Positions 27,683 to 38,160 of a stretch of 64,000 bases of DNA are shown here, in pieces. This DNA comes from a virus: positions 1 to 64,000 of IMG/VR virus record IMGVR_UViG_3300009034_000017; one strand, given 5' to 3'. The notes under the pieces are model-generated. The model saw nothing but the letters and a program-made list of their open reading frames with translations, did not search any database and was not told where the DNA came from. Numbering within the stretch: the first letter of the stretch is position 1; the number at the start of each line of letters is the position of its first letter. Made by a program: the position numbers and the translations under genes.

Positions 27683-28345
27683 TCACAATAGAGTTAACTG
27701 AGAACGCCTCAATCTGTCTTGGCCGATTCTGTCAAGGCTCATTTTGACATAATCAGGATTGATGTCGCAGCCAAAGAACTTGCGGTCTAGGCGGTCGGCG
27801 GCTACAGCGGTTGTGCCGCTGCCTATAAAGGGATCAAAAATTAAGGCGCTTGGATCAGACAAATTCTCAATTAAATGGGTGGCCCAAGTCATATTCTGAG
27901 CCCACGGATGTTTTGTCTGATCTGGCGACCGTGTTCGGGGGATGCCGTCACACATAACTTTGTGTGTTGCCTTGCCCTTGCGGAAGTACAAGATAGGCTT
28001 CCATGTTACCATAAAATTTACACCAAACAATCGAGGATAGCTACGATTTTCCAGAGACCCCATCCAGTGATAATCAAGGTGCGGACACATCAATGACAAT
28101 ACCTCTGGTATTTGATAGTGCCCACAGAGGGTAACAAGCCATGATTTGTCTTTCATTACCCGTTGCCCACCAATAGCCAAGTTCCCAAATAGCAAAAGAG
28201 ACTCTCGTTTATAGGGCGGATCAGTCACCACCAAGTCTACACACCCATCAGGCATAGCGGCCATTACTTCCAAGCAATCACCGCAGACTATATCGCCCCG
28301 AACCTCCCCGCTTAACACTCTCTCAAATCTCTGTGCAAAGCCCAT
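27683..28345 (-). CDS. beta-class DNA methyltransferase M2
   Basis: TDPPY, [12 protein letters not shown]. Confidence 0.92.
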   Translation of the reverse strand: [220 protein letters not shown]

Positions 28346-31206
28346 ACTCGGCCCTTTTTGTCTTTGTGCTTCCTATCTAAGAAGCCTTCGCAACTCAATC
28401 CAAATTTCTTTGCTTGACAAGAGTGGGCTCCGTGCTTATTCGCTGCATTGTAGCCACGGCCCTTTCTGCCTTAATGCGTTCGGCCAACACAATGATGATA
28501 TTCCCTGCCTCATGCATATCCGCCACGCCAGAGGCAGGCGAACCACCCTTGCAACCATAGGGTGGCCATAGCAATTGCGCCGCTTCCATTTCTGCCCATA
28601 CACAGATGTCCATTCTGCCTCCCCTTATCCCTTTTAATCAGAGCTACAGGCCAGTTTCCCCGCCCGTCACAAAGATAGCCCCAGAAGCCAGCGACCCAGT
28701 GTGTAGGCAACGATGAGTAGAACTATAAACACTACAACAAACTCAACCCAGCGCGGATTTCTATTGACTGTATCCAATACCCACATTAGGAATAGCACAA
28801 ACGCAGTCCCTGCCAGTAAAGCACATATCCCCAACACTAGATACCTAAGATGCTCCATGTCCTCATCCCCTTTCAGCCTGCTTTTAGGCAGTCGCTCGCC
28901 TAGGAAGCGACCGCCATTGCCTACTACTGCCTAGGCTAGGTCTGACAAAGGAGGAAGTGTCCCTGCCGAAAGGGCTTGAACTTCCCTCTCTTAGCAGACA
29001 AACAAGCTTATTACCCCTTCCGTATCCCCGCGTTGTACCAGTCCACAAGCTGATTGAAGATTTCTCGGGGTATAGGTATGGTAACCCCAGCCAAAGCAGA
29101 GTCCTCCAGCACTTCTTGGGCTAAGGTCGCATCCTGCTCATCAAGCATTAGCGAGTATGGCCCAATTTCAATTACCACATTGTCAATCTCCAATGCACGT
29201 ATTTCGTCAAGCGTTCTTGCATCTCTGGGTTTCATCCTTCCTCCAATAGGACGATCACTTCCTCACTCTTATCACAATAAGCCGCCCAGTCACTAAACAT
29301 GCCCATATCCCACTTTACGATTCCCTCGGTCGCAACCCTGATCGCAATCTGGTCAAAGCGGCCCTCCTCCACATTATAGCGCACCTGGTCAATGACGCCG
29401 TCAATGTAGATTGGGAAAATGACGAACTTGGACTCAAATTCCCTGCCAGCAACATACTCATCCAACTTGGGCTTGCATCGGTTGTATTCGGCGAGTATTC
29501 TGCTTCTTAGCTCGTCAGATATTTCCATGTTGCAATGCCCAATATTCTTCCCTGCCGATAAACTCAGCGTTATCGGGAAATTGCCCAGACAGCCAATCAG
29601 GGATAGTCCCTTGCCCCCACAGGTCGTCGGTTCGATGTATTGCCCCGTCATTTATCTTGACGAAAAACTCCCGCCCAGCGAAGCCCTTAAATGGCCCACC
29701 GTGACGTTGAGAAACAGCCTTCTCATCTGGCAAAAGTGTCTTTTTGGGTATATAGCTTCTGCCATTGACACGCCACCACAGCGGATCATTACCATGCTTC
29801 TCAACCATATTGTGCCAGAAAGCGCACCCAAAACAGATGTGCTTCCCCCGCATCAAGGTTAGCTCGCGGCAGTCGCTGTAATGTTCATAGTATAGGGAGC
29901 CGCATTGTTTACATTGGCTTCTTTCCAATTCAACGATTCCCTTGGCATTCATAACTATAGATTGACTAGACGAGCTTGCGCTTTCATGAACGCGAAGGCT
30001 TTTGCCTTTGAGTTCAACCAAAATGTCATGGCCGTTGACATTGATTAGGGATTCGCCCGCCGGAACGGTGAGTGTATGGGGGATTTCCCCCACAATTAAG
30101 CGCAGGGTAGCTTGTTCCATTTTCTCTCCTTTCAAAGTTATCAAGCAAGGCCGCGGGCTAGTCTTTCACCTAGCCGACGGGGGCCTGTGTGACTAGGAAG
30201 CCTCTCCGCCGTAGCCTGTCCCACCTACTGCGTTTCATAAGCGCAACGCCGCCGCAGCCCTTCCTAGAGCCTAATCTGAAGCGCGTTGCCCCATCGTTCC
30301 ATGACTAGCCCACACTGGCACTTGTGCCGCTCACCGTGGGGAATGTCTGCCTGATCTTGCCCACACCTTGGGCAAGTCAGTGTGCCAGCATTGTAATCAG
30401 TGATTTGCAAGCCGGGTATAATCGCTGATTCATGTACCAATGGCTTAAAGTATTTGCTGTAGTTCAAGGTTTCCATTTCCTCTCCTTTCAAATTCCCTAC
30501 TGATTTCAACCAGGCTTTGGCTGCATCATATTTAGCGTCCCGCGGCCAATAAGCTCTAGCGCTTCTCTCCTAGAAAAGCCCTCCTTCATATAGGCATGCA
30601 GGAGCTTTCTAGCTATGACGGCGATACATTGCCATAACTCATCGTCATCGGCCATCACCTTGTAGATGCCCGCGACTAGCTCTGTCACTTCACCCACCAT
30701 TCATTTCTCCTTTCAAAGCTGTTTGATTTTGCCAAGCATCTCGCTGGCACCTCGCACGCTGTTTATTATCTCTATCAACTTGGGCCTTCAGCCAGCCGCG
30801 CCTATAGCAAGTTACAAAGCAAGTACGACAAGAGCGGCCCTGAGACCATATTGCTTCTAAACACTCTTTGTCTGCTGGAACGGTTCTAAAATGGCAAAGG
30901 TGCATCATACGCATAACTCCTCCTCGCTGCCCCCATACTAGGCAACCGCCCTGCGGCACAAGCACATTCTTTGTTTGATACTTGGGCTGGTTACTCCTCC
31001 CTGGCTTTCGCTAACTGATATTTCGTTGGGCAGCCTGAGACAGGGTCCGGGAACACTGATCCAATTGGCATGCACATTCTAGACTCAGTAGTCAACCCCA
31101 CCTCGTCACCTCAGTAGCCTCACCAGCCCAAGTACCAATCCTGCCCTGCCGTCTAGCCGCCTTGTTCGTCAGTGGGCACGTCACGAACAGGACAGGCGGC
31201 TTCGTT

Positions 31207-37237: not shown

Positions 37238-38160
37238 ATGCCTTCAAGCGCTAATTGAGAGCGCTTCAATCTGTCTTGTCTGATTCTGTCAAGGCTCATT
37301 TTGACGTACTGAGGGTTGATGTCACAGCCGAAGAAGCGGCGACCTAGCCGGTCGGCGGCCACGGCAGTTGTACCGCTGCCTATGAACGGGTCAAAGACAA
37401 TTGGCTCTGGCAGGTCTTGGGTATTGGCCCGATGGACGAACAGCTGGATCAATCTTGATGGCAATTCCAGAGGGAAAGTGGCAGGGTGCTCCTTGGCCGA
37501 TACAGGCGGGAGAAACCACACATCCTTTGTCTCCTCCAAGAAAGGCACAGCTTCTTTGCCGCGCCGACCTGTCCCTCCATCGTGATACCAACGGCCCTTT
37601 GAGCCCAGCAGGATGATTTCATGGGCGGGCCTCATATATGGGTCACTGTCACAGCCCATTCGGTAATCTGAGCATATCGCGTTGCCCTCGCTACCCTTAA
37701 CCCAGATTATAGGCTCACGCATTTTGAAGCCGATTCGCTCCATTTGCCCAAACACCCGAAAGCCTAGCGGCTCTATTCGTCCCTTGCCTCTCTGATTGTG
37801 TTGGCTACCCACATGGGTCAGGTACTCCGGGTCGTAATCTGACCATGTATCTCTGTAAGTGTGATCCCGTTGCCAACGGACTACCAAGGGGACATTCAGG
37901 GCTATTACTCCGCCAGGTCGCAATATCCGATAGCAACCCTGAAGTGCGCTGTCAATCAATTGATACCAGTCTTGCCACGGTAGCTGGTCATCGGAGACCC
38001 CGTAGGCCATTCGACAATTGTAGGGTGGGCTTGTCACCACTAAATCCACACACTCGTCTGGCATCTGCCCCATCACTTTTAGGCAGTCGCCACAAACTAT
38101 ATCCCCCTGAGCCTCCCTGCCCAAAACCTTTTCAAATCTCTGTGCAAAGTCCATAATCAA
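37234..38160 (-). CDS. beta-class DNA methyltransferase M6
   Basis: [30 protein letters not shown]. Confidence 0.93.
   Translation of the reverse strand: [308 protein letters not shown]

Follow-up and report, generated by a model that had tools for sequence, protein, structure and literature searches.

Beta-class methyltransferase genes with shared ends and differing centres in a sediment phage: a probable recombination mosaic

Orphan DNA methyltransferases (MTases) of phages are a main counter-measure to restriction-modification, and the renewal of their repertoire is poorly documented. The closest known case to the genes described here is the way target-recognition domains (TRDs) move between Type III mod genes, as in Helicobacter pylori. 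In Bacillus phages, the multispecific C5-cytosine MTases of SPR, phi3T, rho11s and SPbeta (PF00145) are protective; a single such protein has several TRDs arranged in tandem, and these enzymes allow specificity modules to be exchanged while the catalytic scaffold stays constant. In the phase-variable Type III mod alleles of Haemophilus influenzae and Neisseria, the hypervariable centre is thought to set specificity, strong negative selection conserves both the 5' and the 3' part, and horizontal transfer plays a role (Bayliss et al., 2006; PMC1557822). In this study, the first 64 kb (64,000 nucleotides, hereafter the window) of the virus record IMGVR_UViG_3300009034_000017 were analyzed. Three of its beta-class MTase genes, referred to as M2, M3 and M6, share their 5' and 3' ends (the frames) and differ in their centres (the cores). 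We consider it probable, at roughly 75%, that M2, M3 and M6 are a recombination mosaic in which ends and centres have different histories and different centres were swapped onto the same scaffold.

The window is part of a linear IMG/VR contig of 74,956 bp that is 53% complete according to CheckV. Its structural genes are on the plus strand and extend up to ~19 kb, and from ~20 kb on nearly all genes are on the minus strand. Megablast of positions 27000–39000 against 50,697 GenBank phages returned no match. Contigs that are near-identical or 85–95% identical to the window were found in the sediment metagenomes of one study (runs X1 and X2). A six-frame search of the window with PF01555 (N6_N4_Mtase; curated cut-off of 26.7 bits) identified eight beta-class MTase loci, of which six are intact and two (M4 and M8) are decayed remnants. 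M2 (27683..28345) encodes an intact minimal MTase of 220 amino acid residues with the motif IV DPPY and the leader MGFAQRFE. M3 (31793..32554) encodes an intact MTase of 253 residues with the variant motif IV DPLF and the leader LGPY. M6 (37234..38160) is also intact, possesses SPPY and is predicted to be of the N4-cytosine type; its likely start is the ATG at 38154, which gives the leader MDFAQRFE. All three genes are on the minus strand, and their PF01555 scores were 70.1, 69.8 (E=4e-19) and 121.4 bits (E=7e-35), respectively.

The 5' segments (~70–140 nt) and the 3' segments (~150 nt) of M2, M3 and M6 were 72–88% identical at the DNA level, and their middles were ~12–22% identical at the protein level in a multiple alignment. 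The shared segments were delimited by ungapped repeats; sliding identity along a gapped global alignment of the DNA was set aside because of over-fitting. All of the repeats are on the minus strand. The 3' repeat family, D1, comprises 27690–27838, 31800–31948 and 37247–37395 (149 nt, 74–83% identical). The 5' repeat family comprises 28224–28291, 32388–32455 and 38033–38100 (68 nt, 74–88%), and a longer 5' repeat of 141 nt with 74% identity is found in M2 and M6 (28209–28349 and 38018–38158). The 3' segment of M2 (27686..27838) encodes motifs I–II, the C-terminal helix and the tail RSQLTLL and was 83% identical to that of M6 at the nucleotide level. The 5' segment of M2 (28209..28345), which contains repeat families D2 and D3, encodes the FAQRFE leader and a strand and a helix up to motif IV. 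In M3, the 3' segment (31796..31948) belongs to D1, and the 5' segment (32388..32455) was 88% identical to positions 38033–38100 of M6. Both M6 segments are composite. The 3' segment (37237..37395) is M2-like at 37258–37312 and M3-like at 37315–37363, and the 5' segment (38018..38158) has an M2-like leader and an M3-like block at 38033–38100.

A preliminary description of this DNA, made from the sequence alone, had pointed out several of these features, and they were all recovered. They include the eight MTase loci and two exact repeats between M2 and M6, of 24 nt (27725–27748 and 37282–37305) and 18 nt (28323–28340 and 38132–38149). These two words are reported as the longest of any MTase pair; the words of other pairs were 8–14 nt long, and that of M3/M6 was 19 nt. 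Peptides of 15 and 28 residues are common to M3 and M6 in the translations. The similarity ends just before motif IV and returns at FDPF in the alignments, and the leaders are FAQRFE in M2 and M6 and LGPY in M1, M3 and M7. The frames of M7 were 64–70% identical to those of M2, M3 and M6, without synonymous excess.

The similarity among the ends of M2, M3 and M6 exceeds chance and motif conservation. At identical residues of the 3' ends, the same codon was used at 28 of 43 positions in M2–M6, as compared with the 14.2 expected from the codon usage of the phage (p=1.7e-5), at 24 of 37 in M2–M3 (p=5e-5) and at 20 of 39 in M3–M6 (p=0.009). The 5' ends of M3 and M6 shared 17 of 24 codons (p=4e-4). 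For the 3' ends of the three genes, the synonymous divergence (dS, Nei-Gojobori) ranged from 0.86 to 1.56, with 0.99 for M2–M6 and 0.86 for M2–M3. The non-synonymous divergence (dN) of the end segments was 0.09–0.17, indicating strong purifying selection. For all core comparisons and for every pair with M1, M5 or M7, synonymous sites were saturated and same-codon use was at chance. A shared-type gene of another phage (contig G006) was ~70% identical in the 3' segment at the protein level and used the same codons at 14–16 positions, with 11.3 expected, so that it had hardly any excess. Thus, synonymous identity in the frames was above background in the 3' ends of M2, M3 and M6 and in the 5' ends of M3 and M6.

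The order of the informative sites in M6 also changes between donors. Along its 3' segment (2, M2-like; 3, M3-like) they read 3232322222222222222222 3333333 2223. A row of 17 M2-like sites is followed by seven M3-like sites (longest-run permutation, p=0.0003 and 0.0017), and the number of runs deviated as well (p=0.007). Moreover, the ratio of M3-like to M2-like sites was 13:2 in the 68-nt 5' block and 11:22 in the 3' segment (Fisher p=0.0013). Given these donor switches, M6 is a patchwork of an M2-like leader, an M3-like 5' block, a centre of its own, an M3-like motif I–II stretch and an M2-like tail. Pieces of the scaffold have thus probably moved between co-resident paralogs as short conversion tracts.

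Ends and cores had different relatives. Whole-protein searches identified orthologs of the M6 core in four other virus contigs (L001–L004), with cores 48–63% identical. The 3' end of M6 was 40–55% identical to those of L001–L004 and 86–90% identical to those of M2 and M3, to which its core was only 18–22% identical. The M6 core was 84% identical to that of P0014, which carries shared-type ends. Similarly, the M1 core was 53–55% identical to that of P0040; P0040 has shared-type ends, and the frames of the two were 53% alike. The nearest cores to that of M2 were those of P0094–P0096 (39–40%), and their 3' ends were 32–48% identical to that of M2. Conversely, the cores of P0019, P0038 and P0032 were 18–35% identical to that of M2, and their 3' ends 75–77%. 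An ortholog of M3, L012, was 72% identical and kept DPLF. A word-based search with the M2 core retrieved M2 alone, and an exhaustive search was used instead. It retrieved 1391 relatives at 30–44% identity, most of which carry other ends; many are proteins of 350–420 residues in which the core lies ~150–250 residues in. The same variable module is therefore found between different flanks for the M6-type core, for M1 and P0040, and for the M2 core and P0094–P0096, and in these reciprocal cases the ends had played no part in the searches. The trees agreed with these comparisons. The core tree contained the clades {M6, P0014, L001–L004} (98), {M1, P0040} (99), {M3, L012} (96) and {M2, P0019, P0023, P0038} (96), and in the frame tree the shared-type ends grouped together whatever their core. 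The recombination between frames proposed in the preliminary description, by which the ends were joined to different cores, is borne out by this conflict between the two trees and by the synonymous excess.

A wider pool of such genes was found when the last 59 residues of M6 were searched against 5.8 billion proteins. The pool consists of ~45 PF01555 proteins of 193–337 residues whose 3' ends were 65–90% identical to that of M6. They are also near-identical in a 27-residue stretch of the 5' segment, for which they were not selected, and their centres vary in length (119–243 residues) and subfamily. No correlation between the identity of the frames and that of the cores was seen over 1275 pairs (r=-0.05). 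Wherever two frames were at least 80% identical (62 pairs), the cores were 17–32% identical, and pairs with 85%-identical cores had frames 72–73% identical. Outside the pool, ~200 PF01555 3' ends with GSGTTAV or DRLGRxFFGC, taken from IMG/VR and GTDB genomes, were typically 50–60% and at most 66% identical to that of M6. The listed matches from genome, viral and metagenome contigs were ordinary PF01555 genes, and among them no 3' end was more than 66–69% identical to that of M6, which is not proof of absence from bacteria. G006 was the sole other IMG/VR contig with an exact match to a 14-residue peptide signature of the shared ends.

Contigs from sediment metagenomes contained variants of the locus. 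Logan contigs of four runs (X1–X4) were placed on 22500–42000 at 80% likeness; X3 and X4 contain only a small share of the window, and the reading is confined to the parts with contig cover. Five contig joints were exactly in register with the offsets of the frame repeats. In two runs, contigs of relatives extended from the gene downstream of M3 (31563 or ~31746) through the 3' segment into an M6-like core, so that the M3 3' segment with its flank (31563–31792) was joined in register to that core. The joints on this 3' side were 31888 to 37379 and 31852 to 37312, and the M6-like parts of the centre in these contigs were 86% (37379–37533) and 89% (37312–37884) identical at the nucleotide level. 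On the 5' side, the 5' end of M6 was joined either to the M3 leader (38064 to 32425, run X1) or to the gene upstream of M3 (38091 to 32862). The depths of the 5'-side and 3'-side joint contigs were similar (216 and 233). On the simplest reading, a dominant relative would have an M6-like centre at the M3 locus. In addition, M5 was missing in relatives from two runs, in which 35170 was joined to 36324 or 36329 with 11–19 other letters between them. Thus, M5 (35171–36323 replaced) is a clean, gene-sized presence/absence polymorphism among relatives.

All six intact genes encode the motifs in permuted order, with a (D/S)PP(Y/F)-type motif IV at residues ~40–50 and DPFxGSGTT ~50 residues before the C terminus. 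Motif IV is SPPY in M1 and M6, DPPY in M2, DPPF in M5 and M7, and DPLF in M3 and its ortholog L012. Related shared-end proteins carry DAPY, DLPY, DPVY or DPPW, which are conserved non-canonical tetrapeptides. Pfam recognizes M2 only at residues 142–203. An AlphaFold model of M2 (pLDDT 93.4, pTM 0.91) was matched by Foldseek over its full length to M1.HpyAVI, CcrM, M.BceJIV and N4CMT (E down to 2e-16; TM scores of 0.68–0.79 over 200–245 columns). Each centre best matched a different PADLOC model of a Type II or orphan MTase, and all centres belong to PF01555. The cores, which had at first been described as unrelated, are thus distant members of one fold.

In class I MTases the strands of the sheet are ordered 3-2-1-4-5-7-6, and beta4 pairs with beta1. 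In the M2 model, the 5' segment consists of a helix (residues 3–12), a strand (17–21), a helix (24–30) and the strand beta4 (36–41), and the 3' segment of the strand beta1 (168–171), a helix (178–185), the strand beta2 (189–194) and a long helix (197–219). Because beta4 pairs with beta1, the two end segments form one unit that binds S-adenosylmethionine (AdoMet), and the centre holds motifs V–VIII and the recognition loops. The residue that opens motif IV goes with the centre, being S in M6, M1 and their core relatives and D elsewhere. The nearest solved homologs of the S-type centres include N4-cytosine MTases, and the PDB sequence matches of M6 include TTHA0409, N4CMT and M.PvuII. The swap between N6-methyladenine and N4-methylcytosine types suggested in the preliminary description is plausible at the level of sequence, as the same frames carry SPPY-type and DPPY/DPPF-type cores.

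These results are consistent with the following scheme. The genes encode orphan beta-class MTases, predicted to act on N6-adenine or N4-cytosine (order IV–VIII, TRD, X, I–III), of a virulent-looking, uncultured sediment phage, which most likely pre-methylate the phage DNA against several host restriction systems, judging from family and context. Each gene consists of three pieces. The 5' segment provides the helix of the leader, a strand with a further helix, and beta4, and it ends at motif IV; the central module provides the residue that opens motif IV (S or D), motifs V–VIII, the target-recognition loops and the motif X helix; and the 3' segment provides motifs I–II, the long C-terminal helix and a tail of the type QLxLx(L/I/F). 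The two ends make up the AdoMet-binding half, with base and sequence specificity residing in the centre. Homologous or homeologous recombination within the end segments has probably moved centres onto one scaffold, both in this genome and across the wider pool of related metagenomic MTases, and strong purifying selection on the ends would have followed these old exchanges. The phage would benefit by renewing its set of methylation specificities when the restriction systems of its hosts change. This is a mode of evolution and not a programmed switch.

Several points weigh against a recombination mosaic or limit its scope. First, dS near 1 and exact identity of no more than 24 nt give no support for recent exchange within this genome. 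The dS values of the frames indicate that the exchanges are old, and near-identical moved modules, a sign of recent movement, were not found, the closest cores being 84–85% identical at the protein level. Second, the 5' ends of M2 and M6 were 81% identical at the protein level, yet their same-codon use was at chance; much of the end conservation is therefore due to purifying selection and not to recently shared DNA. Third, in approximately unbiased (AU) tests the core data rejected the grouping {M2, M6, P0001} (log-likelihood difference 96, p=0.0005), but the frame data (75 columns) disfavoured the M6 core clade only at the borderline (log-likelihood difference 51, p=0.053), and both p-values are optimistic because the tested groups were named after the trees had been seen. 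Fourth, the shared-end set (~40 proteins) was gathered by 3'-end similarity, which narrows the range of frame identity and inflates its lack of correlation with core identity. Fifth, the contig joints rest on short contigs of diverged relatives, in which they could stem from chimeric assembly where ends are repeated or from further MTase genes belonging to the pool. Finally, an involvement of the neighbouring recombination-type genes in the exchange is a conjecture.

A different emphasis is that selection for a shared docking module is the main force. All MTases of this phage group would have to retain one C-terminal module, ending in a peptide like those that bind the clamp, and its N-terminal partner strand. 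The ends would then move onto new MTases, and recombination would be only the route by which they spread. The pattern Q[LM]x[LM]x(L/I/F) was found within the last ten residues of 36 of 39 shared-end proteins, as compared with 2 of 51 homologs from bacterial genomes, 4 of 149 relatives of the M2 core, 14 of 95 IMG/VR viral homologs and 17 of 83 metagenome homologs. The C-terminal codons are at 27686–27706 in M2, 31796–31816 in M3, 37237–37266 in M6, 23034–23057 in M1 and 44141–44158 in M7, all on the minus strand; M1 ends in PPLFTI and M7 in YPLF. The consensus for binding to the beta-clamp is QL[SD]LF or QLxLxL, which the shared tail QLxLx(L/I/F) resembles in sequence, and such a tail would give a selective reason to keep one 3' module. 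The same tail "alleles", such as RIEADRLQRSQLALQI, occur on different cores, and conservation of the protein despite saturated synonymous sites also agrees with a docking role. However, the tail of M2 is modelled as helical, at the end of the long helix, and clamp-binding peptides are usually exposed tails. No gene for a beta-clamp or a family A polymerase was found in the contig, which at 53% completeness is uninformative. Moreover, what changes at the M3 locus is the core, between flanks that stay the same, as if it were the cores that move. Selection for docking overlaps with the recombination mosaic, and as the main force it is unlikely.

A related proposal is that the scaffold is a selected plug-in architecture. 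A single AdoMet module would carry a QLxLx(L/I/F) peptide that docks every MTase on the sliding clamp at the replication fork, any N6-adenine or N4-cytosine centre with any target could then methylate the nascent phage DNA before restriction, and the Sak4-like and ERCC4-like genes described below would supply exchange at low identity. This proposal is tentative and, on the present evidence, rather doubtful. If true, the scaffold would be a bacterial-virus analog of the tethering of DNMT1 to PCNA. No paper linking phage MTases to clamp-binding motifs was found in a literature search of incomplete coverage.

An ordinary paralog family without recombination, in which the ends stand out only because they hold the motifs under the strongest constraint (IV and X/I–III) and the TRD-containing middle diverges fast, has little probability left and is already largely refuted. 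The ends are the best-conserved part of any PF01555 alignment, unrelated 3' ends typically reach 50–60% identity to that of M6, and the 5' ends of M2 and M6 are conserved in protein only, as such a family would predict. Nevertheless, orthologous cores carry ends that are only 40–55% alike, whereas the non-orthologous, co-resident genes have ends 86–90% alike. The synonymous excess, the donor-switching runs and the rejection of the frame-based grouping by the core data also argue against this explanation, as does the lack, among the listed matches, of any 3' end outside the pool that is more than 66% identical to that of M6.

A programmed generator of diversity that actively reshuffles MTase specificity, like hsdS shufflons, phase-variable mod genes or diversity-generating retroelements, is highly improbable: many paralogs with repeated ends, recombination genes among them and many frame-to-frame joints in metagenome contigs are what it would produce, but all MTase genes are in direct orientation, in which exchange between repeats deletes rather than switches, no inverted repeats linking the MTase genes and no simple-sequence tracts beyond two-copy units of 9–16 nt in their coding regions were found, the scanned neighbours yielded no invertase, integrase, other site-specific recombinase or reverse transcriptase, and the repeats are 72–88% identical with dS of ~1. 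Given the dS of 0.86–1.56 and the lack of these hallmarks, the genes are an old evolutionary mosaic and not an active switch or a dedicated system. The undescribed system that the preliminary description had favoured is thus not borne out.

Two neighbouring genes on the minus strand encode proteins that may be related to recombination. The open reading frame (ORF) at 34062..35156 encodes a P-loop ATPase that is probably an AAA_24/Sak4-like recombination protein. It scored 18.9 bits against PF13479 AAA_24 (E=0.0014), which is under the 27-bit cut-off, and in the ESM Atlas all 30 of its nearest clusters were AAA_24 (features 0.94, TM 0.51/0.72). The ORF at 38166..38990 encodes a probable structure-specific nuclease of the ERCC4/HhH type. 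It had no Pfam or PHROG match; its ESM Atlas matches were to ERCC4 clusters (features 0.95, structure TM 0.51–0.57). The Sak4-like ATPase/ERCC4 pair named in the preliminary description therefore has support from the Atlas for both members as a lead, and the match to PF13479 remains below the cut-off. Neither ORF had relatives in IMG/VR, so that no syntenic sister genome was available for comparison. In G001, which shares only distant homologs, the homologs of the two genes are adjacent (76852–78577), and in the window they are separated by M5, the ORF 36389–37237 and M6. This arrangement suggests that the MTase genes were inserted into a conserved recombination module. The Sak4-like annealase and the ERCC4-like nuclease may catalyze the exchange at low identity.

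The other MTase loci are also on the minus strand. M1 (23031..23831; 143.9 bits, E=9e-42) encodes an intact protein of 266 residues with SPPY and with ends of a type other than the shared one, and its best PADLOC model was the orphan MTase PDLC03714. M5 (35231..36271; 167.7 bits, E=5e-49) is intact and encodes 346 residues with DPPF and an intermediate 3' end. M7 (44138..44887; 180.5 bits, E=6e-53) is intact and encodes 249 residues with DPPF, ends partly of the shared type and the tail MQYPLF. M4 (33646..34065) is a remnant that contains the N-terminal half of an M1-like MTase, 68% identical to that of M1, behind a foreign leader of 26 residues, and its PF01555 match of 16.7 bits was under the cut-off. 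Beside M4, an M1-like C-terminal tail, RVSQANPPLFAI, is read in a different frame and opens the overlapping ORF 33329–33691; M4 has therefore lost an internal part. Two ORFs, whose ends are near 56652 and 58578, start with the same 26 residues as M4. M8 (~47953–48558) is decayed. Its six-frame reading, with one TGA inside, scored 35.6 bits and covered only positions 1–82 of PF01555. It reads ...IATSPPYW, TGA, GKRDYG..., where canonical N4-cytosine MTases have a sense codon, and has no motif I downstream; the in-frame TGA may reflect nonsense decay or local read-through.

Some further genes were observed near M1 and in G006. Within 20313–22440, a DUF5131 gene (phage Gp37/Gp68-type, E=8e-95) adjoins a radical-SAM-like gene (phrog_9298), and this pair sits just upstream of an NT5C-type nucleotidase gene (22433–22936) and M1. 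The region 20313–22440 may be a DNA-modification module. G006 contains five MTase genes. One of them (L276, 12006–13601) encodes an MTase of 531 residues with an apparent intein-like insert (…FA/CVDEETECLT…FITGN/T…); in its tail, but not in its motif I, it is similar to the shared-end gene beside it.

The locus is a clean natural example of one cofactor-binding scaffold that carries many specificity modules, predicted to include N4-cytosine and N6-adenine types, and it comprises traces of exchange at the DNA level as well as variants in the population in which one and the same locus has an entirely different centre. Its natural junction points suggest a practical route to engineered chimeric MTases, and the phage-enriched C-terminal peptide may tether MTases to the replisome. 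No paper on phage beta-class MTases with shared ends and swapped centres was found in a literature search of incomplete coverage.

Several solved minimal beta-class MTases have the same fold and motif order as the phage proteins. They include M1.HpyAVI (5hek/5hfj), CcrM (6pbd), M.BceJIV (8urk), N4CMT (8s9n), M.PvuII (1boo), M.MboIIA (1g60) and M.RsrI (1eg2), and M6 aligns to solved MTases by sequence. However, the solved minimal MTases are only 17–25% identical to the phage proteins, and none is described as belonging to a family whose members share their ends and have swapped centres. Different from the phage genes, the Bacillus phage C5-cytosine MTases belong to another family and are not separate paralogs with swapped centres. 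Similar to the phage genes, the mod alleles of H. influenzae and Neisseria combine conserved ends with a hypervariable centre (PMC1557822). Those alleles, however, belong to one bacterial locus with phase variation through repeat tracts and a res gene, whereas the phage case concerns paralogs within one genome and a metagenomic pool, without repeat tracts.

The mod genes of H. pylori belong to the same superfamily as the phage genes (beta-class, with a PF01555-type catalytic domain). In both cases a variable centre lies between conserved motif-coding DNA, and recombination in the flanks is proposed to move modules between loci. However, the phage genes encode small, orphan, Type II-like MTases for which no res partner was seen. 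Their exchanged unit is also larger than a TRD, as the residue that opens motif IV, motifs V–VIII and the motif X helix all belong to it; therefore, centres predicted to be of the N4-cytosine and N6-adenine types share one scaffold. Moreover, sequence outside the TRD is poorly conserved between the H. pylori orthologs, whereas the ends are the best-conserved part of the phage genes, and the H. pylori TRDs are near-identical, whereas the phage exchanges are old (dS ~1). The mechanism of exchange is already known from Type III mod genes, and the advance made with the phage genes is in scope and setting, not in principle.

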